Part shown: positions 9,443-43,720 of the stretch, piece after piece
Position numbering within the stretch: the first letter of the stretch is position 1
Layout of the letters: every line of letters begins with the position of its first letter
Virus record (IMG/VR): IMGVR_UViG_3300020183_006509
Span: 1-43,720 of that record
DNA: 43,720 nt
Direction: 5' to 3' (one strand)
DNA from: a virus
Taxonomy: Duplodnaviria; Caudoviricetes
The notes under the pieces: model-generated
Told to the model about the DNA's origin: nothing
Database searches by the model: none
The model's input: only the letters and a program-made list of their open reading frames with translations
Position numbers and translations under genes: made by a program

Positions 9443-9444
9443 AA

Positions 9445-12603: not shown

Positions 12604-12774
12604 TTAAAACTTATTTTCCTCTGGTGAATCATCAGAAAGTTTGTTGTCTTCAGATTTTCCAGTCGGAGCAAAACTCATTCCTTTTTTGTAGTCATCTACA
12701 AAAGGTTTTGGTTTTTTATCCTGATCCGGATCAGATGGTGCAAAAGCCCAAACCCTGCTAAGGATTTTTTTTAG
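12604..12774 (-). CDS. -1 frame C-terminal extension (56 aa) of the 888-aa protein
   Basis: Open -1 frame LKKILSRVWAFAPSDPDQDKKPKPFVDDYKKGMSFAPTGKSEDNKLSDDSPEENKF*. It carries two more copies of the upstream protein's xxAP repeat and is entered at A AAA AAC within an A9 run. Confidence 0.7.
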   Translation of the reverse strand, partial: LKKILSRVWAFAPSDPDQDKKPKPFVDDYKKGMSFAPTGKSEDNKLSDDSPEENKF

Positions 12775-24740: not shown

Positions 24741-24755
24741 TTATTTTTTTAATTT

Positions 24756-25310
24756 TTAAGTAAATAGATCATCCCAATAATCAACCGCCCATGTCATGGT
24801 GATTTCATACAAAGTAGTTCCATTCACATAATCCAACTCCATCGGATCAATAGCTTTCATAGGGAAACAGTCTTTGCAGGTAATTCTCCTGAAAACATCT
24901 CCGTTTTTGTTGAAAATAGAAATGATAACCGTTCCAGTGTAATCCCTTTTGATCCCCATAGCTCCCGTGAGTGGATTGTAAATCAAATCGGTCCACTGTC
25001 TTAGGGTTTTAAACGTGTACATCGAATTATCGTCATTCAAATTAACCGTAAATTTCACGCTCAAATCCAAACTGGTTTTATCTGGTTTACCCCCCGCATA
25101 GTTTCTTTTGGCAAACTTGTATTTCTGAAAAATAAAAGATGGGTTTTTATCCACGTCCATTCCTTGTACACTCATAACCTGTTGTAACAAAATTTGACCC
25201 CCTAGAACAGCTGCAGGGGGAATTACCGTTACCTCAAATTGATTGAGATAAACTGGTTCGTATTTATTGATCGAATACAATGAATTTTGGTAATGTGGTA
25301 AACCGGCCAT
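24756..25310 (-). CDS. gp19: Tail tube protein (gp19-like), copy 1
   Basis: Directly after the sheath. NQFEV, W.D..YNP.TG, DCFP..I..M.LDY and W..DYW are tube motifs. Confidence 0.85.
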   Translation of the reverse strand: MAGLPHYQNSLYSINKYEPVYLNQFEVTVIPPAAVLGGQILLQQVMSVQGMDVDKNPSFIFQKYKFAKRNYAGGKPDKTSLDLSVKFTVNLNDDNSMYTFKTLRQWTDLIYNPLTGAMGIKRDYTGTVIISIFNKNGDVFRRITCKDCFPMKAIDPMELDYVNGTTLYEITMTWAVDYWDDLFT

Positions 25311-25329
25311 TAATTGTTTTTCTTTTTTT

Positions 25330-25337
25330 TATTTATC
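25330..25337 (-). promoter_or_regulatory. Putative late promoter GATAAATA
   Basis: 20 nt upstream of the tube ATG; one mismatch to both GATATATA and the T4 late box TATAAATA. Confidence 0.6.
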
Positions 25338-25363
25338 TTACCTTCTAAAATTCACAAAATATG

Positions 25364-28900: not shown

Positions 28901-28927
28901 TATCGTTTTAAAGATATTTTTTCCTAG

Positions 28928-28986
28928 TATATATCAAAATGAATTACCACAAATGAGGATATTACTAGGGTTCCATCCTATATATC
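28928..28986 (-). promoter_or_regulatory. Two tandem late promoters GATATATA (28928-28935 and 28979-28986)
   Basis: Both lie in the 95-nt gap upstream of the sheath. The proximal one forms one arm of an imperfect inverted repeat (28923-28969). Confidence 0.7.
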
Positions 28987-28995
28987 TTTAATCAA

Positions 28996-30795
28996 TTATG
29001 ACATTAGCTTGCTAAATGAATCATAGAAGCTTCCTTCTTTAGTTTTTCCGTCGGTTTCCTTGTCATTTAATTTGGTTTCAATCAATTTTCTATAGTCCTC
29101 GTCCATTCGATCGTAGAGATCCCCAATCAAATCGTAGAAAGCTGTTGTTTCAAAAAGTGCAGACAAATTCACCAAAGTCATGGCGACATCGTCGTGTCCA
29201 GATTGTGATGAATATGTTCCGCTATTGTTTAATCCAAAAGAAAAAATTTCTGGAATTGTCCATGCTTTTTCGTTGATAATGACTCTGTTTTGTCTGAACG
29301 ATGCCCTCAACATTTCACAGTACTTCATTTTGTTTTTTTCGTTGTACTTGATGCCAGGTTTTGCAGTTCGTGCAGACTCCGTGTGTTTGGTGTGTAAAAA
29401 CATATCCAGAGAAATCTCATCGTTGGAAATCAATTTGTCTAATAGGAGCTCCCCTCTAAAATTCATTTCGAGTAAAACAGTCAATCTTTCTTTATTGAAT
29501 ATATTTAAAATCAAGGCCTCAATCATTTTTTTAATATCTTCAATTTGAATACCATTGTCTCTGAAAACCCCAACCTGGAGTAAACTAAAAAAATCACCTT
29601 CGTCCTTGAAATCATCTATGCTTTCAATTAATTTTTTGGGTAAAGGAACAACTCTAAAAATATTGATAACCGTAAAATCTCCTCTGCCCCCTCCTGCAAG
29701 ATCGACAGATAAAACAAAATTTTTATCATCTAAAGATGCCGAATCTAAAGAAAATTTTGGATGCCATCTAAAATTTTCATAGAAAATTCCTAGATCACTT
29801 AGAACATCTATTTCTCTCCACTCATATTCAGATTCATTTGATTTTATTTTCTTCAGCTCATTCGATCCGAGCAACAAGGAGGTTGAACTTAGAAATTGGT
29901 TTCCGTATTCCTGATTGAAAAGCTCTTCGCTGCCAAGATTGGCGATTTCCTGTTTTTTCCATTCTTCGTCTCTACCTGGAACTTGCCACCAATCAACTCG
30001 AACAGGATTGAATGAATTTTCTCCTGTCAGTGCTCCTTGATAAATGTCATAAAATTTATTCATTCCATTTGGGGTAGAAGTAATGATAATCCTCGAGACC
30101 TTAGATGATGAAACAGTGGGATAAGAAGAGCGGAAGAAAGACTCAATAAAATTCGGATGAATGTGTGCAAACTCATCCATGTACAAAAAGTGAATTGTAA
30201 AACCAATCGCGGTTGTTTTCGTTGTGGTTTTGGCTATAGCCCTACATCCGTTATCGAATTTCATGGACATAACGTTGTTCACAATCATACCTGGCTTCAA
30301 AAACCAAGGCAAACCTTTCACAATAGCCTTGATTTTATCCATGAGTTCTTCGGCAGTTGATCCAACGTTAGCCAAAATCATTGCGTTTTTATCGTGATTG
30401 AAAAGCAAATACCACACCAAAATAATTGATGAAGTGATGGATTTTCCAACTTGACGGGGTGCAAGAAAAATATTAAAACGATTATTTTGATATTCTCTCA
30501 ATACAGATTCTTGGTAATCTCGTAATGTGATGTATTGGAGACCATCATCGGTCATAACCTGACAGTACTGGGCAAAGTGTACCACATCTAAGGCACATTT
30601 TTGCATTTCTTGTAATTCCTCTGGTGTATACTCCCAAAGCAAATTTGATCTTTTTAAAGAAGGGTCACCTTCGTGAAATGGATTATCAACAGATTTGTAA
30701 TCTAAACCTTCATCCTCAACCTTCCTCATAAGGTCGTCTACCCTTTTGGTAGACCAATAATTGGAATCTAGGGGGTCATCTTCATGTTTGCTCAT
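28996..30795 (-). CDS. gp17: Terminase large subunit (T4 gp17-like)
   Basis: Q-motif LRDYQ, Walker A APRQVGKS, Walker B FLYMDEFAH, ITSTPNG, and nuclease motifs SVDLAGG..GDF and GHDDVAM. Confidence 0.95.
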   Translation of the reverse strand: MSKHEDDPLDSNYWSTKRVDDLMRKVEDEGLDYKSVDNPFHEGDPSLKRSNLLWEYTPEELQEMQKCALDVVHFAQYCQVMTDDGLQYITLRDYQESVLREYQNNRFNIFLAPRQVGKSITSSIILVWYLLFNHDKNAMILANVGSTAEELMDKIKAIVKGLPWFLKPGMIVNNVMSMKFDNGCRAIAKTTTKTTAIGFTIHFLYMDEFAHIHPNFIESFFRSSYPTVSSSKVSRIIITSTPNGMNKFYDIYQGALTGENSFNPVRVDWWQVPGRDEEWKKQEIANLGSEELFNQEYGNQFLSSTSLLLGSNELKKIKSNESEYEWREIDVLSDLGIFYENFRWHPKFSLDSASLDDKNFVLSVDLAGGGRGDFTVINIFRVVPLPKKLIESIDDFKDEGDFFSLLQVGVFRDNGIQIEDIKKMIEALILNIFNKERLTVLLEMNFRGELLLDKLISNDEISLDMFLHTKHTESARTAKPGIKYNEKNKMKYCEMLRASFRQNRVIINEKAWTIPEIFSFGLNNSGTYSSQSGHDDVAMTLVNLSALFETTAFYDLIGDLYDRMDEDYRKLIETKLNDKETDGKTKEGSFYDSFSKLMS

Positions 30796-31577
30796 TGGAA
30801 TAAATCATCGTCGATTTCGAAAGTTCCTTCGCTTTCGGGACTTATATTTTTAGAGGCATCTTGACTTGCTTTTTGTCTGGCATTAACCACCGCATTTTCA
30901 TTCACTTCTTCGACTTTCACATCCTGAATTTCAGCACCCAAAATGTCTCTGAGTCCTTCCATTAGACTTTTAGTTCCTCTAACCTTCAATGCAGAGTTTA
31001 TTCCTTGGGCAGGTGGAGGGGGACTGGGAGAAAAAGAAGTATCCGAACCTTGATTTTGTTGCATGGGAACATAACCCGATGAAGCTTTCATCTCCAATTC
31101 TTTTCTTATATTCTTGTAGCTGGCTTCCGTCTTTTCGAGATAGGTCTGGTGATCCTTGGACATTTGCATAATTTGTCCCTGTAATTGTGCAAGAACCTCG
31201 AACATTCGAGCAGAAGCACTTCCTAAATCAATTTCTTCTACCAATTTTGTGATGGCGTGTTGTGCAGTTTTTATTTGAAGCATCATCGATCCAACGTTCA
31301 TGGCATCTATTTTCTTCTTGTATTCAAGGAATTCTGATTCATCAATTAGATTTTGATCCACATAAAATTTAACCAATGACTCTAGCAGATCCCTAGAGTC
31401 TGTACCGGTAGACTGGATTTGAACCTGAAAATCCATAACCTCTGTAGTTTTCATACGGGGAAGGTTGTCTACAGTCAACGATTCAATTTCCAAATTTTCT
31501 TCCATTAGAATGGAATCTAAATTTGCCTTGATTCTCTCCTGGACAACCTTCTCTGGCTTTGGTTTACGTCTTGGCAT
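30792..31577 (-). CDS. Helical protein, candidate terminase small subunit
   Basis: ATGA-coupled upstream of TerL; ARMFEVLAQL resembles the gp16 PR.xEVxxxL motif. Confidence 0.5.
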   Translation of the reverse strand: MPRRKPKPEKVVQERIKANLDSILMEENLEIESLTVDNLPRMKTTEVMDFQVQIQSTGTDSRDLLESLVKFYVDQNLIDESEFLEYKKKIDAMNVGSMMLQIKTAQHAITKLVEEIDLGSASARMFEVLAQLQGQIMQMSKDHQTYLEKTEASYKNIRKELEMKASSGYVPMQQNQGSDTSFSPSPPPPAQGINSALKVRGTKSLMEGLRDILGAEIQDVKVEEVNENAVVNARQKASQDASKNISPESEGTFEIDDDLFQ

Positions 31578-31588
31578 AACTCATTTTT

Positions 31589-34138
31589 TTAACCCTTTCT
31601 GGGAATTTTAGGAATTGCCAAAGTTGGTTTGGCGTTGTCGATTATGTGAGCCAGTTGTGCATCCCTCACGATGTTTTGGTTCAACACAATCGATTGTTTG
31701 TTTATATCTATCATCGATTTGAAAATTCGAATATTGGAAAGCAAAACGGGCGAAGTATATATCCTATAGGCATTGTTGTCTGTTCCATATAGGGGGTTGG
31801 CTGGATTAGTAACAATATCTTTAGGTAAGTCGAAAGTATATGTTTGGGACAAAGTTCTAAAATCTTCATGGACCGGGATTAGATTAGAAGATTGTTCCTG
31901 TGGGTTATTCACATCGTAACTCATCTTCCACATATTGACACCCATCTGGTGATATTTATTAGAAATATTTACAACCAATCCATACCATTCCCCTATTTCT
32001 GGTATGAATTGTAGCTTCGAATTGAAAACAAAATCATTCAAATTTATTTGAATGCTGCCCTCCTGAAGAAAATTCGTGTTGTTGTATTCTTGTGAACCAG
32101 AATAAATTAAATCTACTCTAAGACCTTGTGGTCCATCATTTGGGTCCAAATAATCTCCTGCAATCAAATTTCTAGCCTGTGCTTTTTGCATCTTAAGGGT
32201 AGGGGTATCTAATGAAAAAGGTAAATTAGGATTGACGACGGAAAATTTGAATTGGTCAATCACAGAAGCCACCTGAAATCCACCGGAGTGATTTAAATCT
32301 GATTTTATTGCAACATATCCATCTGGATTTTCAGCATAGCCAAGCCACGGAGAAAGTCCATGTTTATAAGGAGTAGTGTTGTAAACAATTCTTGTTGGGG
32401 TTACCGTTTCCTGAGCCATCGGGACAGGGGGATAAGGTTTTTTAGTTAGAGAATTTTCGTTTACATAATTTTTAATTGAAAACCAGCATGTAAAAGCTAT
32501 TTCTCCATCAGAATCTAATTTAGGGGTAGTTAAATATCTCACCCCATTTCTATATTTATTCGGTTCAAATACAAATTCTGGATTAGATTGGAAAGCATCA
32601 TATAAATCATAATAATTGTTAAACACAATAGTCCAGTTGTTGTTCAAATCGTAACTTACAATGGGAAGTTTTTCGTACACGTACGATCGGGTGGGGTCGT
32701 TCCCTCGGTCGATCGTGGTCGTTTCGTATTGCTGGGGTTTGGTGATTAATTCCTCCTGAGCCTCGGTTTCCGCACCAAACAATTTTTGAGAATTTAAAGC
32801 TATTCCGTCTAGTTCTTCTTTGTAGGCAGGATCTCTGAAGTAAGTGTTAGATTTCGGATTATATTTTTTCAATTCAATTTTGAAATAAATCGGGGAATAC
32901 ATGAAGTCTCTGAACAAATAGGTAGAATTGATTTCATAAATTCTATTGGTGAGAGGAAAATAAAGGATATCCCTTTTACGGGGTTGTGAACCACGACCAA
33001 AAAGACTTTCAAAATATACCTTGTCAATGTGTATTTCGAATGGCTCTTCGAAAGAAATGCCAAACGGGTCATAGTTGGGTTTATTGTCAGGAAATTGGTT
33101 TTGCGGAACCAGCACTTTAACGCATCTTTCTTCCACCACGTCATACAAAGTCCATTCTTTGAGTACCACGTCTTTTGATCTGGACTGAGGTTGAACAGAA
33201 TAGTAATTGGTTTCAAATCCAAACATTTTGTTGACAATCAAACTTAGATCCTTGTAAAGATTGATTGCCTTATTGATGTTATAAGGATTGAATGTGAAAG
33301 GTCCACACTCGTTAAATACCACAGGGCGATTTGATTGTTCAGGAGAACATTGAGGAACTGGGTTTCTAATAACTAAATTATCAGGGCCAGTCGGCACATT
33401 AGCATCATAAGTTAAATTCAAATCGAAATTAACAATGACTACATTTGGACTGATTGGTTCTTCTGATTGATAGGCTATACTCCCGTCCGGATTTACGACA
33501 ACGGACGTGAATCTAAACTCGGGGTAAAATGGCTTGCTTGGATCCAATTGTATCGTAAACACTTCTGCTCCTTCACCTGACTCATAAGAATTTTGTAATC
33601 CCGTTGTTGCAAACCCCATATTTACCCAAAGAGACCAAGTTTCACCATCGACGGAATATCTAAAATCAATTGCAATACCATTGGAGACATTTGCGTTCGA
33701 TACGGAATTTAAATTCACACTATATCCCTCTAAAGATGAAGCTGAATCAATAATCCATCCATTGAAAGAACTAACATAATAAAAAGGTTGATCATAACTT
33801 AGAACTCTGTAGTTTCCTATATAGGTAAAATTCAGGGCAGAGTCTAACTGGGTCAACCTTTCAATTAGCCATTCCTGCGATTGACAAGGAGCATAATAAT
33901 ACGTTCCGTTTGAAGCCAAAACCGTATGATAACCATTGCAACCTATTTGAATTGCTCTGGCCAAAGCAGCACCGGTTGTTCCGTAAAGATTATCCGTGCT
34001 TGTCTCTTGAACCTTGGCAGTATTAGGTAAATCGTCCTGATATCTATATCTAGGATCCGATAAATTTCTCTGTTGACCATTCCCATTATATACGGGAAGT
34101 CCAGTAAAGATAGCTTTGTTAGGGGGAATGGCTGACAT
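31589..34138 (-). CDS. gp14: Neck protein (T4 gp14-like core) with N- and C-terminal accessory domains
   Basis: Central DPFGISFEEPFEIHI...PRKRDILYFPLTNRIYEI matches gp14 (KFG...P.EGDLIYFP....FEI). At 849 aa it is much longer than T4 gp14. Confidence 0.7.
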   Translation of the reverse strand: MSAIPPNKAIFTGLPVYNGNGQQRNLSDPRYRYQDDLPNTAKVQETSTDNLYGTTGAALARAIQIGCNGYHTVLASNGTYYYAPCQSQEWLIERLTQLDSALNFTYIGNYRVLSYDQPFYYVSSFNGWIIDSASSLEGYSVNLNSVSNANVSNGIAIDFRYSVDGETWSLWVNMGFATTGLQNSYESGEGAEVFTIQLDPSKPFYPEFRFTSVVVNPDGSIAYQSEEPISPNVVIVNFDLNLTYDANVPTGPDNLVIRNPVPQCSPEQSNRPVVFNECGPFTFNPYNINKAINLYKDLSLIVNKMFGFETNYYSVQPQSRSKDVVLKEWTLYDVVEERCVKVLVPQNQFPDNKPNYDPFGISFEEPFEIHIDKVYFESLFGRGSQPRKRDILYFPLTNRIYEINSTYLFRDFMYSPIYFKIELKKYNPKSNTYFRDPAYKEELDGIALNSQKLFGAETEAQEELITKPQQYETTTIDRGNDPTRSYVYEKLPIVSYDLNNNWTIVFNNYYDLYDAFQSNPEFVFEPNKYRNGVRYLTTPKLDSDGEIAFTCWFSIKNYVNENSLTKKPYPPVPMAQETVTPTRIVYNTTPYKHGLSPWLGYAENPDGYVAIKSDLNHSGGFQVASVIDQFKFSVVNPNLPFSLDTPTLKMQKAQARNLIAGDYLDPNDGPQGLRVDLIYSGSQEYNNTNFLQEGSIQINLNDFVFNSKLQFIPEIGEWYGLVVNISNKYHQMGVNMWKMSYDVNNPQEQSSNLIPVHEDFRTLSQTYTFDLPKDIVTNPANPLYGTDNNAYRIYTSPVLLSNIRIFKSMIDINKQSIVLNQNIVRDAQLAHIIDNAKPTLAIPKIPRKG
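31756..31763 (-). promoter_or_regulatory. Possible late promoter GATATATA for the terminase pair
   Basis: Within the 3' end of the neck gene, about 180 nt upstream of ATG 31577; could be a chance match. Confidence 0.35.
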
Positions 34139-34201: not shown

Positions 34202-35383
34202 TTACAATTTCTGTTCGGACATTAAATTTTGGATTTTTGAAATTACCATATCGGGGGTGATTTGTGTTGTACACTCAAACATTCTTTCTGTGTTCTTGAG
34301 TCTAGGACACCAATTCCAATCTCCACGATCGAATTTGTGTCTAACGTCGTTGAAACACCCATGGCACACATCGAAATTAATTACTCTATAATTCAAATGA
34401 GAAAATTCACAATGGGGAGAAGAAAATCCAGAAATCATTACCACTGGTTTTCTCAAAGCCCAAGCCAGCCAAGATAAACCGGATCCAATACCGACGAAAA
34501 AATCTGCATGATATAAATCTATCATTCGGTCGGTCATGTCTATAGTTCCGGTTTTATCAACAACTCCATCCAAAGTATTTTGTTGGCTGTGAATCACCAC
34601 CACTTCATATCCAATTGATTCGAGATGATCAACCAAAGTTTGCCAACCTCCTGGATAGTGCCAATGTTTTGCATTTGCCGTGGACTCGGTGGCAATACAA
34701 ACATATTTTCCTTCAAACCTCGATTTAGTTGTCTCCAGCCATCCCGGAATTTGAGAAGGTAAAATATCCGAATTTACTTCGACACCAATTAAGTCACCTG
34801 CAACTTGTTGCAAAGAAATTGATCTCGGATCACGCCGGTGTATGTTCCTATCGTCTTCTTCATACCATCCTACCCCAAACACCACATTGGCAGCTGGATC
34901 CCTAAATCCAGGGGGTGAAAATTTAATTTGGGGGAAAAAGTGTGACATAATTTCATTCCAAAATGTTGTAACGATTAATTGTGCCTTGTATTTTTTTCTT
35001 AGTTGATCAATCACAGGTAACCATGCAATTGTGTCTCCTAATGAAGAAGAATCTATTGATATCAAAATTTTTCCCCCAAACAAAGTAGACTCGAAATCTA
35101 AAGACCAAACCTTATTTTCACGATCATAACCTTCCACTAACCAGGGGGTAAACCATCTTCGAAAAAGGGAGGTAAAATGACCAGGCTTCAAAGTACTTTC
35201 GTGGACACACTCCGAAGTGGTTGGATCAATGAATTTTATATTTCTTTCACTCTTTGGATCATTTCCCTTCAAATCTATTTTTGGAGAATAATCATAAGAA
35301 AATTGAAATTGGATTTGTTCAGGAACGTGTACGTTTTTATTTTTGTTGATATTTCTGTAAATTTCTATCCCACTTTTTTTCAT
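34202..35383 (-). CDS. Aah/TibC-family (autotransporter) protein O-heptosyltransferase
   Basis: SLGDTIAWLP, YVCIATESTANAKHW..PGGW, ADFFVGIGSGLSWLAWA..KPVVMISGFS.P..EF, and the iron-finger C-x2-C-x15-C-x11-C (VCHGCFND...WCPRLKNTERMFECT). Confidence 0.88.
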   Translation of the reverse strand: MKKSGIEIYRNINKNKNVHVPEQIQFQFSYDYSPKIDLKGNDPKSERNIKFIDPTTSECVHESTLKPGHFTSLFRRWFTPWLVEGYDRENKVWSLDFESTLFGGKILISIDSSSLGDTIAWLPVIDQLRKKYKAQLIVTTFWNEIMSHFFPQIKFSPPGFRDPAANVVFGVGWYEEDDRNIHRRDPRSISLQQVAGDLIGVEVNSDILPSQIPGWLETTKSRFEGKYVCIATESTANAKHWHYPGGWQTLVDHLESIGYEVVVIHSQQNTLDGVVDKTGTIDMTDRMIDLYHADFFVGIGSGLSWLAWALRKPVVMISGFSSPHCEFSHLNYRVINFDVCHGCFNDVRHKFDRGDWNWCPRLKNTERMFECTTQITPDMVISKIQNLMSEQKL

Positions 35384-36441
35384 GATGGTAAATTCAAAAT
35401 TTTTCGAATTAGTTCAACATTGTATTCATGATCAGTCACAGGCTCTTGGTTTGAATAAAAATGAACTAAGGGGGTTTCGTCGTAGTCGTCCATGTAAGAA
35501 GGCAATCTCCTCATTAGTATGGGTAAATTCCAAGAAAGAGATTCCTTTATAACAATCGGGTTCAATTCCCAAATCGAGGAGAAAACAAACAAATCGGATG
35601 CTTCATAAAATAGGTCAGTATCGTGTCTTTCCCCCCAAATTCTGCAATTTCTTGGAACATTCTTCATCAGAGGCTCCCAATATTCTTGAAAGTTACCCGC
35701 CAAATTACCAATGAAATGAAATTCTATTTGTTCATTTTCTAGTAGTCTGGCGTATTCCATGAGTTCCCCTTGATTTTTACCTGGGGTGAAAAGACCGATG
35801 TTAATAACATGTTTTTTGTTTGGGTCTAAACCAAGTTGTTCCCTGGCACTTTCTTTTCCAATCCCGATAAAATCTTCTATGGGATATTCCAAGATATCCA
35901 ATTCGAAACCAGAACTTTTAAAAACTTCGGTCATCCATTTATTTACCATCACCAATTTATCAGGAGCCCAGAATTTGTCCAAAATTTTAACATTTGAAGA
36001 GTGACACGTTTCAAAAATAAACCAAGGTCTGTCTGGGGAGAATATTTTTCGACAAATATCATCACCAACGAAGAATTCCACAAAGTCTTGGAAGTGGATG
36101 ACGTCTGGGCAAACCCTTTCCACAATTTCTAGAAATTCACTTTTGTCTTCTGTGTCTATTCTAAAATAATTTTCCCCCAATAAATTTTGTATTCTTTGTC
36201 TTTGAACTACAAATTCGTCCGATAGGTTATTGTATTCTACACAATAGATTTCTCCTTCTGGCAAAAGTTTCTCGATGCACTTATAAAGATACTGAGGCAT
36301 CCCCCCAGTTGAAAGGTGCGGAGCAACAAAAAGAATTCTGGGTTTATTTCCAGATTCTTCGAGGATAGAATTTTCAACAGAACTTAAAATTCTATGAAGG
36401 TGATATTTTGTTCTTCGCAGGGTATCAGTTGGGCTTTTCAT
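35380..36441 (-). CDS. GT4-family (GT-B) glycosyltransferase
   Basis: APHLSTGGMPQY, IGLFTPGKNQ and DLFVFSSIWELNPIVIKESLS. ATGA-coupled to the heptosyltransferase; start re-called to ATG 36441. Confidence 0.85.
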   Translation of the reverse strand: MKSPTDTLRRTKYHLHRILSSVENSILEESGNKPRILFVAPHLSTGGMPQYLYKCIEKLLPEGEIYCVEYNNLSDEFVVQRQRIQNLLGENYFRIDTEDKSEFLEIVERVCPDVIHFQDFVEFFVGDDICRKIFSPDRPWFIFETCHSSNVKILDKFWAPDKLVMVNKWMTEVFKSSGFELDILEYPIEDFIGIGKESAREQLGLDPNKKHVINIGLFTPGKNQGELMEYARLLENEQIEFHFIGNLAGNFQEYWEPLMKNVPRNCRIWGERHDTDLFYEASDLFVFSSIWELNPIVIKESLSWNLPILMRRLPSYMDDYDETPLVHFYSNQEPVTDHEYNVELIRKILNLPS

Positions 36442-36715
36442 CTTGGTTTTGGGAATAAATTCCGGTGTTGAAATCCAATTGCCCTTCACCGTATTTAGAT
36501 ACAATATTGTTCACCAATTCTTGTTCTCTTTTTTTGATATCCGACGTTTCTCCATATAAAGACTGAAGTTGTTCTTCAACAAATCTGATTTCCTCGGTCA
36601 GAAAATGATGTTGGATGTTCATGCGACCTATTTTGTCAACGTTTTCACGAGCCTCGTTTCTTAGAGATTGAACCTTTTCTAGTTCTTCTGAACTTAATTT
36701 AATTTGATTTTCCAT
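36425..36715 (-). CDS. Small coiled-coil protein, paralogue of 37963..38229
   Basis: KLSSEELEKVQSL...KYGEGQLDFNTGIY. Confidence 0.75.
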   Translation of the reverse strand: MENQIKLSSEELEKVQSLRNEARENVDKIGRMNIQHHFLTEEIRFVEEQLQSLYGETSDIKKREQELVNNIVSKYGEGQLDFNTGIYSQNQDEKPN

Positions 36716-36726
36716 AGCAAATTCTT

Positions 36727-36752
36727 TTATTTTGAAATTGGGTAATTATTTC
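36727..36752 (-). promoter_or_regulatory. Putative ECF-type promoter GAAAT-N18-TAAAA (leftward)
   Basis: Upstream of ATG 36715, heading the GT4/heptosyltransferase run. Confidence 0.45.
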
Positions 36753-36763
36753 ATCCCTCTTTT

Positions 36764-36789
36764 GAAATTTTTATTTTTCAAATTCATAA
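36764..36789 (+). promoter_or_regulatory. Putative ECF-type promoter GAAAT-N18-TAAAA (rightward)
   Basis: GAAAT ttttatttttcaaattca TAAAA upstream of ATG 36806; mirror partner of the leftward site. Confidence 0.45.
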
Positions 36790-36805
36790 AAGTTCAAATG
36801 GAAGA

Positions 36806-37951
36806 ATGAAAAAAAGAATTTTAAGTTTAATTCCAGATAGATTGGAAAAACCTATGGGAGGATTAGGCTATCAATATTTAGCCTTACACGATGAATTGAG
36901 TTCCGAATTTGAATTACACACCATTTGCTTTCCCCATCTTTCTTCTGGTTTTGAATTTCCAAATACCAAACAAATTTTTCCGAGTTTTGTTCCAACAAAC
37001 GGTGGAAATATAAACCCTTTGGTTTTCAATTTGGCACATCAAATTAATTTCTTTGTCACATCATTGGGTATGCCAAAACCAGATTTGGTGCACGCGTACG
37101 ACTGGCCGGTATACATGCCCGGTGGACATTTGTCTAATCACTTCAATGTTCCTTTGGTGTGCTCTTTAAATTTGGCAATAAGAGGGCAGATCCATAGGAA
37201 TTTGAATATTGCCCTTGATCCAACAACAAAAGACGGGAAAACAATTCAAGAAACTTTATTGGAAATGGAAACTGGATTTTTGAGATGGTCCGATCGAATT
37301 ATCACCATATCTAAATTTTATCTCGATATATTTCCAGAATTTTCGTCCAAGATGTCCTTGGTCCCAAATGGAATTGACCTTAAAAAATGGAAATCAAACA
37401 ACCCAAATCCCAAAAAGAAAAAAAATAAAATTGTTTATATCGGACGGTTTTGCGAGATGAAGGGAGTGGATAAATTATTGGAAGCCAATATCCCAGACGG
37501 CATTGAACTTTGGATCATTGGTTCTCCCGATGGGGGAGATTTATTGTGCAATAAACTTTTGGATCAAAAACTTCAGGAGGGAAAAAAGAACATGTTTTAT
37601 TTGGGTCCAAAACACGGTTCAGAAAAAATTCATGTCTTGAACGATGCCGATGGAGTTATTATGCCATCTGTTCACGAACCATTTGGACTGGTTGCCTTGG
37701 AGGCGATGGCCTCTAATTGCGTTTTACTTTCTTCCAGAAGAGACGGGTTATCAGATTTCGTTAATTCAGAAAATTCTATTTTTGTTGATCCCACGGTAGA
37801 AGGGATCGAACAAGGATTTTTAGAATTCTTGAATTTGTCGGAAGAAAGAAAAGATTATTTCAGAGAGCAGGGAAGAAAAACATGCCAGAAATATACATGG
37901 TTTTCGGCTGGAGAAAAAATGGCAGAAGTTTACCGTGAACTCCTGAATTAA
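36806..37951 (+). CDS. GT4-family glycosyltransferase (only plus-strand gene)
   Basis: MGGLG, PDLVHAYDW, VPNGIDL, YIGRFCEMKG and MPSVHEPFGLVALEAMA. Confidence 0.9.
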   Translation: MKKRILSLIPDRLEKPMGGLGYQYLALHDELSSEFELHTICFPHLSSGFEFPNTKQIFPSFVPTNGGNINPLVFNLAHQINFFVTSLGMPKPDLVHAYDWPVYMPGGHLSNHFNVPLVCSLNLAIRGQIHRNLNIALDPTTKDGKTIQETLLEMETGFLRWSDRIITISKFYLDIFPEFSSKMSLVPNGIDLKKWKSNNPNPKKKKNKIVYIGRFCEMKGVDKLLEANIPDGIELWIIGSPDGGDLLCNKLLDQKLQEGKKNMFYLGPKHGSEKIHVLNDADGVIMPSVHEPFGLVALEAMASNCVLLSSRRDGLSDFVNSENSIFVDPTVEGIEQGFLEFLNLSEERKDYFREQGRKTCQKYTWFSAGEKMAEVYRELLN

Positions 37952-37962
37952 AATTGATGTCT

Positions 37963-38229
37963 TTAATTTCTAGGAGTGAGAATTCCTGTTTCTATATCCA
38001 AATTAACGTTTCCGTACTTGTAATCCATCATTCCCATGAAGTTCTTTTCCTCGATTTTGAATTTCATGAATTTATCCTCTAAATCTTTTTTTCTTTGAGA
38101 TAGAACCAACATCTCCAATTCCAAAGATCCAAACTCAATTATAAATTTTTCACCGGTGGATTTCAAATCCTGAATTTTATTTAATTCTTCGGAGGTAATT
38201 GTTTGCTGTGTGGAATCTGTTGTATTCAT
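37963..38229 (-). CDS. Small coiled-coil protein, paralogue of 36425..36715
   Basis: ITSEELNKIQDL...FGSLELE...KYGNVNLDIETGIL. Confidence 0.75.
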   Translation of the reverse strand: MNTTDSTQQTITSEELNKIQDLKSTGEKFIIEFGSLELEMLVLSQRKKDLEDKFMKFKIEEKNFMGMMDYKYGNVNLDIETGILTPRN

Positions 38230-38534
38230 ACCCTGCTGAAAGTAGAAGTGGAGTTGATAGAATTTGAAGATTGTAGTTCCGTTATAAGAAAAGTTTCCAA
38301 TCCGTTTATCAACCGATCATAAGGATCAGAAATATTGACGTCGAAAGTTAATGTCTCTCTGTTTAAATCGGGGTAAACCACTGTATCCCTACAAATTCCA
38401 TCAGATGAGGTAACAAAAAGATCCACCATTAAATCTCCTTTATAAGAAAGATGTGCATTTATTTTCAACAAAGGAGACTCGTGAATGAGAAGCGATGTTG
38501 GACTTTTAAAAAGTCCTGTAACTTGAATTGCCAT
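38226..38534 (-). CDS. Hypothetical protein (about 102 aa), fibre-associated position
   Basis: Start re-called to ATG 38534 (MAIQVTG), after the SET gene stop. Confidence 0.65.
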   Translation of the reverse strand: MAIQVTGLFKSPTSLLIHESPLLKINAHLSYKGDLMVDLFVTSSDGICRDTVVYPDLNRETLTFDVNISDPYDRLINGLETFLITELQSSNSINSTSTFSRV

Positions 38535-38548
38535 ATTTTTATATTTTT

Positions 38549-39109
38549 TTATATTATGTTTTTCTTTTCTCTCGAATTCCAATAATCTTCACCCCCGTAA
38601 TAAATACATATCTCTTTTCCTATTTCTATATCTTCCAAAGCAAAGAAATTGAAAGCTTTATATTCGGGATGGTCTATCCAATCAGCATTTGGTGAATTGG
38701 AATGATTATAAATACATCCATATCCAAGTGGAATAACATACTCGGAGAGTGTTCTTTTTGGATAAAGATATCTATAATCAGTGAGAAGATCACCTTCTTT
38801 TGGTATTTTTAATAGATAGCAAGTTTCAATTATTTCTCCCTTTGAAATTTTTTGAGTTGCAAAAACTCCCATTCCCTTTCCTTCTGATATCTTAATTTCT
38901 ATTTTTGTTGGTACATTTATTTGTGGAGGAGGTTCTGATCTTAATTGTGAAATTTTTTCTTTTGACACAAAGACATTTTCAGGCAATGTGTAATTTTCAC
39001 CTAGGTGGTGATATCCCTTTATTTTCTTTTTAAAATCTTCTAAGTCAACTGTTATAACCATAGCTCCGCTATTTTTGATTTTTTGAATTATTTGAGGATC
39101 AGTTATCAT
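38549..39109 (-). CDS. SET-domain protein-lysine methyltransferase
   Basis: GKGMGVFA...I.KGEIIE, YNHSNSPNA and ALEDIEIGKEICIYYG are the canonical SET motifs. Confidence 0.9.
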   Translation of the reverse strand: MITDPQIIQKIKNSGAMVITVDLEDFKKKIKGYHHLGENYTLPENVFVSKEKISQLRSEPPPQINVPTKIEIKISEGKGMGVFATQKISKGEIIETCYLLKIPKEGDLLTDYRYLYPKRTLSEYVIPLGYGCIYNHSNSPNADWIDHPEYKAFNFFALEDIEIGKEICIYYGGEDYWNSREKKNII

Positions 39110-39112
39110 AAA

Positions 39113-42100
39113 TTAACCTGGCCTGTAACAAGGGATTAAAACTACAGCACCACCTTTACCAGCTGAATCAAGTATAACTTCCATCCAAACATCTGGTTCT
39201 TTGAGATACATTTCAGCGCTACCATCACTACCTATAGCATATTCTGGCGGAACTACCTGATTTACGGGCGGTGTATTACTATATCGCGTGGCATCAAATC
39301 TTATCCATTTAGAGGATGATGGTGTTGATGATATATGTACCCATGCACTTGGTGACGTTTGAATTCCATAACCTGTGTTATTAATAATACCTCTACTGGT
39401 ACCATTTGTTGAAAATCCAATCGAATCAGCTGCCGGAAAGTAAATTCCGGTGTTGGTGTCTGAAGAATTTAAACCAGCGTTAAGAACTGGTGCGGTGGCA
39501 GATCCTGCAACCAACTGGATATTGGCGTTGGTCGTTGTATTCAATCTGAGAGTCTCGGTACCACCAGCCACAAGACCCATATTGTCGGCTGAGGGAAAGT
39601 AAATTCCGGTGTTGGTGTCTGTAGAATTTAGACCAGCGTTTAAGATCGGATTAGCAGCAGACCCTGCCAGAAGATTAATTCTTCCATTAGAATCTATCCT
39701 CATCGCTTCTACGCCACCTTCAACAAATCCAATTGTGTCGGCAGCCGGAAAGTAAATTCCGGTGTTGGTGTCTGAAGAATTTGCTAAACCAGCAGAGATA
39801 GAAGGCAATGAAACACTTCCTGCCGTTAATTGAATTTGTCCATTTCCTTGAATCCTAAATAATTCTGTTGTTCCCCCGTAGAAAGCATGAACAAAAGAAG
39901 AGGTTGCCTGTGGAACAGAATACCAAAGTCTTCCAGTGAGGGGATATGTACCAAAGGCGTAGTTTACATTAGAAGCATTAATACCAGACCACAATGTTAT
40001 CTTTTCTCCGGTGGAAACATTAGTGGGAGTAGGACCAGCATTCCCCGCCGATGCATTAGGATAAGGAGAAAACTCTATTCTATTTGATGTTGTATTTGAA
40101 AGATGAATTTGACCGCCACCTAAAGCATTTGTTGGGGTTCCAAGAAGATTTAAAGTCGGGGAAGAAAAAGTTATATTCGATTCAACAGATACATTAGGAG
40201 AAGAACCATTTAGGGTTAAAACACCATTGTCAGTTGTTCCAGATAAGGTGACAGAACCAGATGTTCCCGAAGATCCTGATGATCCAGAAGAACCAGAAGA
40301 ACCGGACGATCCAGAAGAACCGGATGATCCAGAAGAACCTGATGATCCTGAAGAACCTGATGATCCAGAAGAACCTGATGATCCAGAAGTACCTCTTGTT
40401 CCCGAAGAACCAGAAGTTCCTGATGATCCGGAAGAACCAGAAGAACCTGATGATCCGGAAGAACCAGATGATCCAGAAGATCCAGAAGAACCGGATGATC
40501 CAGAAGAACCAGATGATCCAGAAGATCCAGAAGAACCTGACGATCCAGAAGAACCAGATGTTCCCGAAGATCCTGATGATCCAGAAGAACCAGAAGAACC
40601 GGACGATCCGGAAGAACCGGATGATCCAGAAGAACCTGATGATCCTGAAGAACCTGATGATCCAGAAGAACCTGATGATCCAGAAGTACCTCTTGTTCCC
40701 GAAGAACCAGAAGTTCCTGATGATCCGGAAGAACCAGAAGAACCTGATGATCCGGAAGAACCAGATGATCCAGAAGATCCAGAAGAACCAGATGATCCAG
40801 AAGATCCAGAAGAACCGGATGATCCAGAAGAACCCGATGATCCTGAAGATCCTGAAGAACCGGATGATCCAGAAGAACCCGATGATCCTGAAGATCCTGA
40901 AGAACCGGATGATCCAGAAGACCCAGAAGAACCTGATGATCCGGAAGAACCAGATGATCCAGAAGATCCAGAAGAACCTGATGATCCAGAAGAACCAGAT
41001 GTTCCCGATGAGCCAGATGTTCCAGAGGATCCAGGAGTTCCTGAAGAACCTGATGATCCGGAAGAACCAGATGATCCAGAAGATCCAGAAGAACCAGATG
41101 ATCCAGAAGATCCAGAAGAACCGGATGATCCAGAAGAACCCGATGATCCTGAAGATCCTGAAGAACCGGATGATCCAGAAGAACCCGATGATCCTGAAGA
41201 TCCTGAAGAACCGGATGATCCAGAAGACCCAGAAGAACCTGATGATCCGGAAGAACCAGATGATCCAGAAGATCCAGAAGAACCTGATGATCCAGAAGAA
41301 CCAGATGTTCCCGATGAGCCAGATGTTCCAGAGGATCCAGGAGTTCCTGAAGAACCTGATGATCCGGAAGAACCAGATGATCCAGAAGATCCAGAAGAAC
41401 CAGATGATCCAGAAGATCCAGAAGAACCGGATGATCCAGAAGAACCCGATGATCCTGAAGATCCTGAAGAACCGGATGATCCAGAAGAACCCGATGATCC
41501 TGAAGATCCTGAAGAACCGGATGATCCAGAAGAACCTGATGATCCAGAAGAACCAGATGTTCCCGATGAGCCAGATGTTCCAGAGGATCCAGAAGAACCG
41601 GATGATCCAGAAGAACCTGATGATCCTGAAGAACCTGATGATCCTGAAGAACCGGATGATCCAGAAGAACCAGAGGTTCCTCTAGTACCGGAAGATCCAG
41701 AAGAACCTGATGTTCCAGAAGAACCTGATGTTCCAGAAGAACCTGATGATCCTGAAGAACCTGAAGAACCTGAAGAACCAGAAGTTCCAGAAGAACCTGA
41801 TGATCCAGATGATCCTGAAGAACCTGAAGAACCTGATGATCCTGAAGAACCTGATGATCCTGAAGAACCGGATGATCCAGAAGAACCAGAGGTTCCTCTA
41901 GTACCGGAAGATCCAGAAGAACCAGATGTTCCAGAAGAACCTGATGTTCCAGAAGAACCTGATGATCCAGAAGAACCTGATGATCCTGAAGAACCTGAAG
42001 AACCTGAAGAACCAGAAGTTCCAGAAGAACCTGATGATCCAGATGATCCTGAAGAACCTGATGATCCTGAAGAACCAGATGACCCAGATGATCCAGATGT

Positions 42101-43720
42101 TCCAGAAGAACCTGATGTTCCAGAAGATCCAGAAGTTCCCGAAGTACCAGATGCTCCAGTAACACCAGAAGTTCCCGAAGTTCCTGATGAACCTGACGAT
42201 CCAGAAGAACCGGATGATCCAGAAGAACCGGATGATCCAGAAGAACCGGATGATCCTGAAGAACCTGATGATCCAGAAGAACCGGACGATCCAGAAGAAC
42301 CGGATGATCCAGAAGTTCCTGAAGATCCAGAAGTTCCTGAAGATCCAGAAGTACCAGATGACCCAGAAGAACCGGACGATCCAGAAGAACCGGATGATCC
42401 AGAAGAACCGGATGATCCAGAAGAACCCGATGATCCCGAAGAACCTGATGATCCAGAAGAACCCGATGATCCTGAAGATCCTGAAGAACCGGATGATCCA
42501 GAAGTTCCTGAAGATCCAGAAGTTCCTGAAGATCCAGAAGTTCCTGAAGATCCAGAACTACCCGATGATCCAGAAGAACCTGATGATCCTGAAGAACCTG
42601 ATGATCCTGAAGAACCTGATGATCCTGATGATCCAGAAGAACCTGACGATCCTGATGAACCAGATGTTCCGGAAGAACCAGAAGTTCCAGATGATCCAGA
42701 TGATCCTGAAGAACCTGATGATCCTGAAGAACCTGAAGAACCTGATGATCCAGATGATCCTGAAGAACCTGATGATCCTGAAGAACCTGATGATCCAGAT
42801 GATCCTGAAGAACCTGAAGAACCTGATGATCCTGAAGAACCTGATGATCCTGAAGAACCGGATGATCCAGAAGAACCAGAGGTTCCTCTAGTACCGGAAG
42901 ATCCAGAAGAACCAGATGTTCCAGAAGAACCTGATGTTCCAGAAGAACCCGATGAACCTGAGCTTCCTGAACTTCCTGAACTTCCGCTTGACCCGGAAGT
43001 GCCAGAAGATCCGGCAATCCCAAAATCTAAACAAGCTTGATCTCCTGCGGTGGGAAAATTATTTGAAGCGTTAGCTGAAATAAAAGAAACACCAAAAACG
43101 TGATATGTTCCCTGGTCGGTGTTGGAAGTAACCTGGTATCTGTATTGCTTCCCGTTGATTAAAACTCGCATTACAGAGCCAACCGTAACACTATCCAGAA
43201 AGGCATCTACATTATTACTGTTTGAATCTGTATCGCTTATAGAAAAAGATGTAACGTTCGATCCGATTTCACCATTAGTCCCAAATATTTGGCCGGATGA
43301 AACAGCCTCACTTGAACCCCAACTCCAACATCCGTCGGAAGGGGTTTCGCCAGAAGTTCCTGAAGTACCTCTTGTTCCGCTAGATCCAGAAGAACCTGAT
43401 GAGCCTGAAGTTCCGGAAGATCCTGAAGAACCTGATGATCCTGAAGAACCTGATGATCCTGAAGAACCGGATGATCCAGAAGAACCAGAGGTTCCTCTAG
43501 TACCGGAAGATCCAGAAGAACCAGATGTTCCAGAAGAACCTGATGTTCCAGAAGAACCTGATGATCCAGAAGAACCTGATGATCCTGAAGAACCTGAAGA
43601 ACCTGAAGAACCAGAAGTTCCAGAAGAACCTGATGATCCAGATGATCCTGAAGAACCTGAAGAACCTGATGATCCAGAAGAACCTGATGATCCTGAAGAA
43701 CCTGATGATCCAGAAGAACC
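39113..43720 (-). CDS. Giant Gly-Ser-Ser repeat (collagen-like) fibre protein; 5' end outside window (>1535 aa)
   Basis: The frame stays open upstream of the track's ATG 43171 to the window edge. Layout: GSS block, ~112-aa globular spacer (43013-43348), ~920-aa GSS block, ~380-aa tail-fibre-like C-terminus. Confidence 0.85.
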   Translation of the reverse strand, partial: GSSGSSGSSGSSGSSGSSGSSGSSGSSGSSGSSGTSGSSGSSGSSGSSGSSGSSGSSGTSGSSGTSGSSGSSGTRGTSGSSGSSGSSGSSGSSGSSGSSGSSGTSGSSGSSGSSGTRGTSGTSGETPSDGCWSWGSSEAVSSGQIFGTNGEIGSNVTSFSISDTDSNSNNVDAFLDSVTVGSVMRVLINGKQYRYQVTSNTDQGTYHVFGVSFISANASNNFPTAGDQACLDFGIAGSSGTSGSSGSSGSSGSSGSSGSSGTSGSSGTSGSSGSSGTRGTSGSSGSSGSSGSSGSSGSSGSSGSSGSSGSSGSSGSSGSSGSSGSSGSSGSSGSSGSSGSSGSSGTSGSSGTSGSSGSSGSSGSSGSSGSSGSSGSSGSSGSSGSSGSSGSSGTSGSSGTSGSSGTSGSSGSSGSSGSSGSSGSSGSSGSSGSSGSSGSSGSSGSSGSSGSSGSSGTSGSSGTSGSSGTSGSSGSSGSSGSSGSSGSSGSSGSSGSSGSSGSSGSSGSSGSSGTSGTSGVTGASGTSGTSGSSGTSGSSGTSGSSGSSGSSGSSGSSGSSGSSGSSGTSGSSGSSGSSGSSGSSGSSGSSGTSGSSGTSGSSGSSGTRGTSGSSGSSGSSGSSGSSGSSGSSGSSGSSGSSGSSGTSGSSGSSGSSGSSGSSGTSGSSGTSGSSGSSGTRGTSGSSGSSGSSGSSGSSGSSGSSGSSGSSGSSGTSGSSGTSGSSGSSGSSGSSGSSGSSGSSGSSGSSGSSGSSGSSGSSGSSGSSGSSGSSGSSGSSGSSGSSGSSGSSGTPGSSGTSGSSGTSGSSGSSGSSGSSGSSGSSGSSGSSGSSGSSGSSGSSGSSGSSGSSGSSGSSGSSGSSGSSGSSGSSGSSGSSGSSGSSGSSGSSGSSGTPGSSGTSGSSGTSGSSGSSGSSGSSGSSGSSGSSGSSGSSGSSGSSGSSGSSGSSGSSGSSGSSGSSGSSGSSGSSGSSGSSGSSGSSGSSGSSGSSGSSGSSGSSGTSGSSGTRGTSGSSGSSGSSGSSGSSGSSGSSGSSGSSGSSGSSGSSGSSGTSGSSGSSGSSGSSGSSGSSGSSGSSGSSGSSGSSGSSGSSGSSGSSGTSGSSGTRGTSGSSGSSGSSGSSGSSGSSGSSGSSGSSGSSGSSGSSGSSGTSGSVTLSGTTDNGVLTLNGSSPNVSVESNITFSSPTLNLLGTPTNALGGGQIHLSNTTSNRIEFSPYPNASAGNAGPTPTNVSTGEKITLWSGINASNVNYAFGTYPLTGRLWYSVPQATSSFVHAFYGGTTELFRIQGNGQIQLTAGSVSLPSISAGLANSSDTNTGIYFPAADTIGFVEGGVEAMRIDSNGRINLLAGSAANPILNAGLNSTDTNTGIYFPSADNMGLVAGGTETLRLNTTTNANIQLVAGSATAPVLNAGLNSSDTNTGIYFPAADSIGFSTNGTSRGIINNTGYGIQTSPSAWVHISSTPSSSKWIRFDATRYSNTPPVNQVVPPEYAIGSDGSAEMYLKEPDVWMEVILDSAGKGGAVVLIPCYRPG
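39410..39830 (-). repeat. Three ~52-aa fibre-type repeats (AGS...P...AGL.S.DTNTGIYFP.AD..G)
   Basis: ggaaagtaaattccggtgttggtgtctg occurs three times, at about 39435, 39594 and 39747. Confidence 0.9.
40253..43012 (-). repeat. 9-nt-period coding repeat, about 306 G-(S/T)-S triplets
   Basis: Continuous ccagaagaa/cctgatgat-type units, with higher-order duplications of about 216, 297 and 306 nt. Confidence 0.97.
43349..43720 (-). repeat. Second GSS repeat block, truncated by window end
   Basis: Same 9-nt units and the same GTRGTS landmark (gaggttcctctagtacc). Confidence 0.95.

Follow-up and report, generated by a model that had tools for sequence, protein, structure and literature searches.

The transferase and the repeat protein beside it

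The stretch of DNA analysed here (the window) is the whole of the IMG/VR virus record IMGVR_UViG_3300020183_006509, one contig of 43,720 bases. Towards its end, on the minus strand, lies an intact gene (34202..35383) for a predicted O-glycosyltransferase of 393 amino acids that belongs to the Aah/TibC (BAHT) family, in a form lacking the thumb of TibC. Directly upstream is a GT4 glycosyltransferase of 353 amino acids (35380..36441, minus strand, PF00534) that starts from the ATG at 36441 and whose stop codon overlaps the start of the transferase (ATGA). The end of the contig is occupied by a giant Gly-Ser-Ser repeat protein (39113..43720, minus strand), a predicted virion fibre of at least 1,535 amino acids that is 5'-truncated there, with no start codon in view. 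An initial annotation had proposed that the phage densely heptosylates its own fibre by means of these genes, and it is this proposal that is weighed here.

The transferase scored 261.9 bits on TIGR04414, the Aah/TibC model (cut-off 200), in the profile search that the initial annotation had recommended, and phmmer matched it to TibC (4RAP) with an E value of 1e-56. It also carries a match to the GT9-related fold PF01075, while on the model of lipopolysaccharide (LPS) heptosyltransferase I (WaaC) it reached 31.9 bits against a cut-off of 185.3. Its AlphaFold2 model (predicted local distance difference test, pLDDT, 91.8) is strand-rich at residues 24-96 and has an N-terminal beta-barrel and a GT-B catalytic domain; Foldseek aligned it to TibC with an E value of 4.5e-36 and a TM score of 0.83 over ~380 columns, and to WaaF with 8e-12. 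In TibC, D110 is the reported catalytic base and T226, K230, R286 and W305 bind the donor, R286 contacting the adenine (PMC4358343). The alignment places D117 of the window enzyme at the first of these positions and T235, K239, R286 and W305 at the others, and C340, C343, C359 and C371 align with TibC C339, C342, C358 and C370, so that an intact enzyme with the four-Cys iron finger was found as annotated. Position 300 is Gly in the window enzyme, Pro in TibC and Ser in Aah, and the stereoselectivity is therefore not readable from the sequence.

The beta-hairpin thumb is missing: the corresponding segment has 13 residues in the window enzyme against 22 in TibC and no F265/V266 tip. The thumb with F265 and V266 is reported to be required for the TibC dodecamer and for activity, the F265D and V266D mutants being inactive dimers (PMC4358343). 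A dodecamer is thus improbable for the window enzyme, which by its sequence is a family member without one defining feature of the classic ring-forming BAHT enzymes. Among 51 phage domains from 49 representative loci the equivalents of D110, K230 and W305 and the four Cys are invariant (51/51), R286 is kept in 27 and replaced in 24, and position 300 is Gly in 39, Ser in 11, Ala in one and Pro in none; all 51 lack the thumb (13-19 residues vs 22). Five phage-type rows (L386, L387, L403, L405 and L408, of which L387, L405 and L408 are basal) have inserts of 22-24 residues whose sequence is unlike the TibC thumb, and "thumb-less" hence describes the bulk of the group and not every row.

An IQ-TREE phylogeny of 60 selected rows, with an outgroup of 7 LPS GT9 rows, separated BAHT from GT9 with 100/100 support. 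Grouping with the LPS enzymes, which the initial annotation had named as the result that would speak against it, was not seen, and an LPS GT9 identity was rejected on the tree, the WaaC score and the Foldseek preference for TibC. The classic BAHT enzymes (95/90) were resolved from a phage-type group (92/85, not starred), and the clade of the window appeared as sister to marine gammaproteobacterial enzymes (91/84, not starred). A FastTree phylogeny of 155 rows over 300 amino acids gave the same split. Two loci (L061:6423-7235 and L065:5362-6177) contain, after a GT4-fused copy, a second and shorter transferase paralogue (270 amino acids) that has no N-terminal barrel and keeps the catalytic Asp and the four Cys.

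The visible part of the repeat protein holds 691 Ser and 105 Thr in its 1,535 residues. Its 350 Gly-X-Y triplets stand in two uninterrupted blocks of 42 and 308, beyond which none of the six reading frames of the window has a run of at least five; both blocks are far above the six contiguous triplets by which collagen-like sequences are defined (cited in PMC11923368). Inside these triplets there are 292 Ser at X and 337 at Y (629 Ser), 56 Thr and only 2 Pro, in agreement with the well over 600 Ser/Thr of the initial annotation. The codons are mixed synonymously, which fits a repeat of the protein better than a DNA slippage tract. Block 1 (43343..43720, minus strand) is cut by the contig end and has 32 GSS and 7 GTS among its 42 triplets; a non-repetitive spacer of 107 amino acids with weak family matches only (43022..43342, minus strand) separates it from block 2 (40250..43021, minus strand), with 259 GSS, 38 GTS, 5 GTR and 2 GTP. 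If triple-helical, block 2 would be about 264 nm long, with 0.286 nm per residue as the rise. Three further assemblies (L001-L003), in which the enzyme is 100% identical to that of the window, share the 308-triplet block, and in a 65% relative (L492) the repeat protein is whole, with 2,845 amino acids and 561 triplets, and is preceded by a second GSS protein. In locus L489:1-9452 (minus strand, contig G045) 727 and 308 triplets share one open reading frame (ORF), the 735-kb phage W02 (LR756501.1) gave 1,247 overlapping matches of the repeat pattern, and many contigs of the repeat-bearing group end inside repeats.

After the repeats comes a C-terminal module of 378 amino acids with three internal repeats (39113..40249, minus strand) that matches tail-fibre families (PHROG 18345, E 2.2e-18; 9942, E 1e-10). 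This likeness and the place of the gene in a structural module predict that the protein is a virion fibre. PF13884 is found in many of the 120 homologues listed for the module and a Gly-X-Y run in none of them, which would reflect either exchange of the module between fibres or a collection that is poor in repeat-bearing proteins. The fibre C-terminus had no match among PDB sequences at E<=1, and ESM Atlas returned virus clusters only (0.90-0.91, low recognition); tblastn of block 1 and the spacer against INPHARED, with the low-complexity filter on, gave no match. A monomer model of the fibre junction had a pLDDT of 56.7 overall and 36-42 over the repeat; its best Foldseek match had an E value of 0.29, with none at 0.001 or below, and although many of the top entries are fibre proteins we base no conclusion on them.

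Co-occurrence of enzyme and repeat in phages and bacteria

A scan of IMG/VR gave 93 confirmed relatives of the transferase, and 48 of the 80 loci examined have a run of at least eight Gly-X-Y triplets within 10 kb of the enzyme. In the close clade (18 representatives including the window, the enzymes of the relatives being 53-69% identical) the gene order is repeat protein, variable genes, a ~90-amino-acid protein, GT4, transferase, neck, a ~260-amino-acid protein, terminase, sheath and tubes. The repeat is in the locus in 13 of these representatives, mostly at the contig end, and elsewhere on the contig in two more; in the remaining three less than 4.7 kb of contig is left on the upstream side of the enzyme. 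Close-clade triplets have Ser at Y in 93% and Thr in 0.1%, with Thr at X in 16%, and those of distant phages have 67% Ser and 7% Thr at Y. TibC is reported to have glycosylated Ser and not Thr (PMC4358343).

The association was also found starting from the repeat. With a DNA pattern for GSS-GSS-GSS-GTS-GSS, 146 stretches were found on 110 distinct contigs in 53 of the 64 collection parts. After 16 known enzyme carriers had been set aside, 51 contigs of at least 30 kb remained, of which 46 were scanned. TIGR04414 was matched over nearly its full length in 25 of the 46 (E<=1e-50; 22 above the cut-off), including all four contigs that are at least 90% complete. As a control we used a (Gly-Pro-Gln)5 pattern in 20 of the 64 parts (first 80 loci, 63 contigs); the enzyme was present in none of the 48 scanned out of the 50 longest contigs, nine of them at least 90% complete. 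The difference (25/46 vs 0/48) has a Fisher p of 1.7e-10, and of 3.5e-7 when only the 27 controls that reach 30 kb are counted, kinship being ignored in both. The carriers are diverse, with terminases 70, 47, 42, 35, 31 and 29% identical to that of the window and none detected in contigs G072 or G084. The co-occurrence check proposed in the initial annotation thus gave a broad pairing of enzyme and repeat, seen in both directions and with controls, which upholds the fibre as the likely substrate; for the heptose kinase, the third gene named there, co-occurrence is strong in the close clade and weak outside it. Contig G045 (83% complete, with repeats and no enzyme) was considered as a counter-example and found uninformative, since its repeat gene is cut by the contig end on the side where the enzyme would usually be expected. 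The isolated Microcystis phage Mel-JY01 (PP395634.1) has ~200 Gly-X-Y triplets (GSS/GTS/GPQ) in an unannotated frame (L081:2-3052, plus strand) over which GenBank calls two minus-strand hypothetical ORFs, and its transferase lies inside a gene of 1,226 amino acids labelled "methyltransferase FkbM".

In GTDB genomes 575 loci were confirmed, of which we analysed the 79 best. All eight loci from marine Gammaproteobacteria (L395-L402, one of them in a 5.2-Mb chromosome) have small GSS/GTS-tailed proteins adjoining the thumb-less enzyme, one to three per locus, with terminal runs of 8-25 triplets; no phage or autotransporter genes were seen in the six inspected gene by gene. These repeat proteins are predicted lipoproteins by the twin-arginine and lipobox-like motifs at their starts. 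Among 81 genomes of the same order the enzyme was over the cut-off in three, and the pairing recurred in 3/3. In Bdellovibrionota (L451:9941-11545, minus strand) a protein with 50 GTS/GTT triplets, Y being mostly Thr, lies 0.9 kb from a thumb-less transferase; its start resembles a signal peptide. Altogether, 11 of 18 phage-type loci of the genome collections have a Ser/Thr-rich run, two of them (L403 and L410) resembling phage contigs binned into metagenome-assembled genomes, and four of the seven negatives are shorter than 6 kb. Near classic BAHT enzymes no Ser/Thr-rich Gly-X-Y run was found (0/65 loci). Nothing speaks more strongly for the repeat as an acceptor, and not just a product of a neighbouring gene, than the bacterial pairing together with this control, and we regard it as highly probable that the Gly-X-Ser repeats are what the enzyme modifies. 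The GSS/GTS tails of the marine Gammaproteobacteria end in poly-Asp, their loci are often near a two-component pair, and a conserved protein of 280-350 amino acids and no known family is also present (L399:6423-10493, L395-L402 and L508-L510).

Sugar donor, glycan genes and setting

A predicted stand-alone heptose-7-phosphate kinase of the HldE/RfaE domain I type (6841..7830, minus strand) lies between the portal genes and the DNA ligase gene, about 26 kb from the transferase cluster. The assignment, made in the initial annotation, is supported by 318.2 bits on TIGR02198 (under the cut-off of 345, with ribokinase next at 69.2) and by a match to the PDB heptose-7-phosphate kinase 4E84 (E 1.2e-52); a Flavobacteriales homologue is also under that cut-off, at 294 bits. 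Among 16 close-clade contigs the match is strong in 11, a shorter PfkB form is present in four and none in one, while of 25 records outside the clade one has a strong match and two the shorter form. The idea that the phage boosts or supplies the donor is thus supported only in part, for the kinase step: RfaE domain II, GmhA and HldD, which were to be sought in the rest of the genome, were each found in 0/15 close-clade contigs, all incomplete (best 85% complete), and a GmhB-type phosphatase in 0/4 close relatives (TIGR01656, 0/5 records). A full phage-encoded ADP-heptose pathway was therefore not found in this clade, and the phage is seemingly not the sole maker of the donor. Elsewhere, GmhA-like matches of at least 200 bits occur in three of 28 distant records and RfaE II-like matches over 120 bits in two. 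Contig G072 (99% complete) contains in one run a GT4-transferase-FkbM gene, kinase-like, HAD-like, cupin and RfaE II-like genes and GSS genes. A kinase homologue (33-44% identity) was found in 66 of 101 Bacteroidota genomes, where the other pathway steps were not searched, and such a host could plausibly supply the pathway. The RfaE I kinase was over its cut-off in three of the four cellular enzyme carriers tested.

Two GT4 enzymes had been annotated in the cluster, possibly extending the glycan. Both are there and both have the GT4 motif EX7E; only the one at 35380-36441 is core. Its orthologue (E<1e-46) is present in 40 of the 48 other representative loci, in nine of them in the same ORF as the transferase, and a role in the glycan is kept for this adjacent or fused GT4. 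The second (36806..37951, plus strand) is optional, occurring in the window and L006 only (2/18 close-clade representatives), and was rejected as a core part. Directly upstream of the core GT4 a protein of 96 amino acids without a family match (36425..36715, minus strand) is conserved in 18/18 close-clade representatives. The variable stretch between fibre and GT4 contains two small genes (88 and 102 amino acids; 37963..38534, minus strand), each found in 4/18, and directly downstream of the fibre lies a gene for a SET-domain protein (38549..39109, minus strand; PF00856, E 5.9e-12) with no counterpart in the other representative loci. Variable genes of the close clade include GT2s, FkbM methyltransferases, APS kinase, a carbamoyltransferase and DUF6445. 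In L490:5114-10325 (contig G004) this stretch has a GT4, an FkbM methyltransferase, an APS kinase, a nucleotidyltransferase and an ORF that we presume from its motif to be sulfotransferase-like, a gene set that suggests a methylated or sulfated glycan.

The window also encodes two T4-type portals, a sheath, two tubes, a large terminase, a neck protein, a DNA ligase, a clamp loader and sigma factors; by its gene content the phage is a T4-like myophage. The genes that follow the transferase (24159..34138, minus strand: neck protein, a protein of 261 amino acids, large terminase, tail sheath and two tail-tube genes) form a T4-like morphogenesis module whose order is kept in the close clade. The portal genes (533 and 541 amino acids; 7841-11070, minus strand) are in tandem, as are the tail-tube genes (24159-25310). 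As the window is a single contig, the rest of the genome was probed only through relatives, whose CheckV estimates (e.g. 230 kb = 85%) point to a genome near 270 kb. Lake-water metagenomes make up 21 of the 24 listed sequencing runs, i.e. those with at least half of the sampled words, and 19 of the 21 could be sources of this DNA; RNA-labelled runs had only 5-12% of the words, and their contigs were short and partly divergent. In NCBIfam the extracytoplasmic function sigma factor is closest to a Bacteroidetes model, with a score under the cut-off, a weak hint of a Bacteroidota-type host. Two large proteins without a family are encoded on the minus strand, one with several repeated "APG.." motifs at its end (12771-15437) and one with a short LGLDK repeat (21061-22785). 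A 290-amino-acid ORF running off the contig start (3-872, minus strand) is by its motifs a putative UV-damage endonuclease. No tRNAs were found in the window and a promoter scan stayed at chance level (22 vs 20.4). A Tet/JBP search for DNA modification gave no match anywhere, controls included. As stated in the initial annotation, the window has no autotransporter gene, none of this family being present among the 41 ORFs and ORF parts scanned.

Proposed modification, alternatives and known systems

Computation establishes the family membership, the fold model, the conservation of catalytic and iron-binding residues, the loss of the thumb, the repeats and their co-occurrence with the enzyme. 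With a confidence that is somewhat better than even, we favour as the whole explanation that the thumb-less TibC-family enzyme adds a sugar, probably heptose, to the repeat serines of the predicted fibre. From the initial annotation this keeps the family, the fibre as acceptor and one GT4, and gives up the second GT4 and the supply of donor beyond the kinase. Late in infection, ADP-heptose would come from the host pathway, with the phage kinase lifting the flux at one step. The enzyme, probably a back-to-back dimer and not a 12-mer ring, would work in the cytoplasm along the unfolded or extended repeat chain, with the Y-position serine as the main site. The coupled GT4 would then extend or cap this sugar, and the glycan would differ between lineages through their own methyl-, sulfo- or further glycosyltransferases. 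The modified chains would trimerise from the C-terminal fibre module, and the product would be a proline-free collagen-like shaft, hundreds of nanometres long, stabilised and shielded by sugars.

Modification by the enzyme is a prediction, and the virion location of the repeat protein is predicted from sequence likeness and gene position; several observations weigh against this explanation. Since the thumb mutants of TibC are inactive dimers, a thumb-less enzyme works differently or not at all, and the changes at R286 (24/51) and P300 (51/51) leave room for a donor that differs between phages. In Mel-JY01, with R286I, no tested heptose-pathway gene was over or near cut-off. The GPQ control contigs are unmatched in lineage and habitat, and 21 of the 46 GSS-selected contigs have no full enzyme match, 20 of these being at most 51% complete. 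In phage LR756504 (636 kb), which has a thumb-less enzyme with R286L (223.6 bits), three patterns detected no G-X-S repeats; the enzyme gene is not broken, its ORF having ~389 amino acids and a score over the cut-off, and it is a true exception. In L016 and L018 the triplets of the visible part are mostly GAQ/GAK, and the serine bias at Y could be structural. The enzyme locus of LR756504 is L083 (LR756504.1:457181-458227), and GmhA is also present in that phage.

The alternative that survives best concerns only the trimerised shaft: the repeats may be glycosylated and yet form a flexible mucin-like brush or a polyglycine-II bundle, which we hold to be a real possibility on the lesser side of even. 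The short cellular GSS tails (8-25 triplets), often broken, with acidic ends and no obvious trimer domain, would fit a brush, and so would a repeat block with almost no Pro or charged pairs and a pLDDT of 36-42 in the monomer model. A helix is favoured by the Gly at every third place, unbroken over 308 triplets here and 561-727 in relatives, where GSS mixes in frame with GAQ, GAT, GDK and GPQ triplets. Four repeat proteins (L009, L033, L036 and L061) have ends that by their motifs resemble the intramolecular-chaperone domain of trimeric fibres. That sugars stabilise a triple helix is a tentative part of the scheme, to which we give slightly less than an even chance.

The same serines could instead receive another nucleotide sugar, the kinase serving something else. 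The replacement of R286, the adenine contact in TibC, in 24/51 phage domains and of P300 in all of them would be in keeping with this, as would the lack of a strong kinase match in most distant BAHT phages, the distance of 26 kb between kinase and transferase, and the absence of a further pathway gene in the close clade. The window enzyme, on the other hand, keeps R286, W305 and the equivalents of T226 and K230, the kinase is strong in 11/16 close contigs, and in G072 the transferase shares a cluster with kinase-like and RfaE II-like genes; the kinase is likewise found in 3/4 cellular carriers and 66/101 Bacteroidota genomes. Another sugar seems unlikely to us, and heptose, given the repeats as acceptor, is a prediction that we make with good confidence, only a little below that in the acceptor itself.

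That the enzyme modifies other virion proteins such as capsid or tail tube, the fibre being a neighbour through the shared structural module, would suit the position of the transferase gene between the fibre and the neck-terminase-sheath-tube genes, LR756504 with its enzyme and no repeats, and the mycobacteriophage precedent (cited in PMC12619734). Against it, the pairing recurs in bacteria without phage genes nearby and in differently ordered phages, and Ser+Thr reach 20 per 30 residues in the fibre and at most 12 in the 10 other window proteins checked, which leaves this possibility quite improbable. Hardly better placed, and if anything a shade less probable, is an action on the host surface (LPS or host glycoproteins) that would block superinfection or change the receptor. 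The GT9-related fold and the resemblance of the variable neighbours (GT2, FkbM, sulfo- and carbamoyl-transfer) to surface-polysaccharide genes speak for it, while the WaaC score, the Foldseek preference and the 100/100 node speak against it, the gene is among late structural genes, and the linkage to the repeats would be left unexplained. Heptosylation of phage DNA by the enzyme, or by kinase and GT4, is the least credible of all: it is reported in phages for 5-hydroxymethylcytosine by enzymes that resemble T4 beta-glucosyltransferase, with TibC absent from the text (10.1101/2023.12.21.572611), whereas no DNA methyltransferase or dioxygenase was among the window ORFs scanned and bacterial chromosomes place the enzyme beside repeat lipoproteins.

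A wider reading, which taken as a whole we regard as speculative and rather doubtful, would make thumb-less BAHT a widespread sister family with the Gly-Ser/Thr-Ser triplet as acceptor. Dense heptosylation would let fibres of 250-600 nm fold in large aquatic phages, in a role for proline-free "serine collagen" likened to that of prolyl hydroxylase in animal collagen; the GT4 and a variable methyl/sulfo/carbamoyl cassette would produce a strain-specific glycocalyx, and marine bacterial lipoproteins would bear the same tag.

If the favoured explanation is true, protein O-heptosylation would no longer be confined to pathogen adhesins but would reach viruses and a new acceptor motif, and a common unexplained repeat of large aquatic phages would be accounted for. 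With 337 Y-serines seen, equivalent to ~65 kDa of heptose, the fibre would be the densest virion glycoprotein proposed for a phage. It would bear on the folding of proline-free collagen-like chains, and a (GSS)n tag with one enzyme could become a simple glycoengineering tool. As Mel-JY01 carries the enzyme-repeat pair, this isolated phage is a possible test system.

Known systems resemble the proposed one in part. The moraphages, freshwater jumbo phages with predicted Bacteroidota hosts and four core glycosyltransferase orthogroups, share the habitat, size class, contractile tail and conserved glycosyltransferases, and virion glycosylation is mentioned for them as a possibility (PMC12619734); the main text of that paper does not contain "heptos", "serine" or "collagen". 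The DNA heptosylation clusters, with a kinase-like/HAD enzyme, a cytidylyltransferase and a GT-B enzyme acting on 5-hydroxymethylcytosine, similarly involve phage use of heptose and kinase, phosphatase and nucleotidyltransferase genes, and the transferases there are T4 beta-GT-like enzymes beside a methyltransferase and a dioxygenase, not BAHT (10.1101/2023.12.21.572611). Mycobacteriophages are reported to glycosylate their own structural proteins, for which shielding has been proposed (Freeman et al. 2023 as cited in PMC12619734, PMC10877033), and phage-encoded glycosyltransferases would likewise act here on a structural protein of the phage. Their glycans are described at capsid and tail-tube C-termini; in the window system a BAHT-family enzyme would act instead on hundreds of sites along a predicted fibre, in a host that is probably Gram-negative.

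Among collagens, galactosylation is reported to render (Gly-Pro-Thr)10 triple-helical (PMC11923368). As in this peptide, vent-worm cuticle collagen and Bacillus BclA, Y is a hydroxy-amino acid on which a sugar replaces hydroxyproline, in our case by prediction. The glycosylated collagens described there use Thr, and the peptide has Pro at X and galactose (PMC11923368), whereas the window protein is almost Pro-free, has Ser at X and Y and would have a dedicated BAHT-family enzyme.

Closest are TibC-TibA and Aah-AIDA-I (TIGR04414; 4RAP/4RB4; PMC4358343), which share with the window system the barrel and GT-B domains, the catalytic Asp, the donor residues, the iron finger, a gene adjoining a repetitive Ser-rich partner and the lack of a membrane anchor. 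In our literature search, with most subscription journals outside its coverage, neither phage BAHT enzymes nor GSS fibres were the subject of any paper. Unlike TibC, the window enzyme has no thumb, probably forms no dodecamer, has Gly at 300 and belongs to a separate sister clade; it is moreover phage-encoded and coupled to a GT4, and its partner is a Gly-X-Ser triplet protein and not a beta-helical autotransporter. As judged from the genes, what is new is thus a thumb-less sister branch of BAHT that is tied to Gly-X-Ser repeats in phages and in some bacteria.

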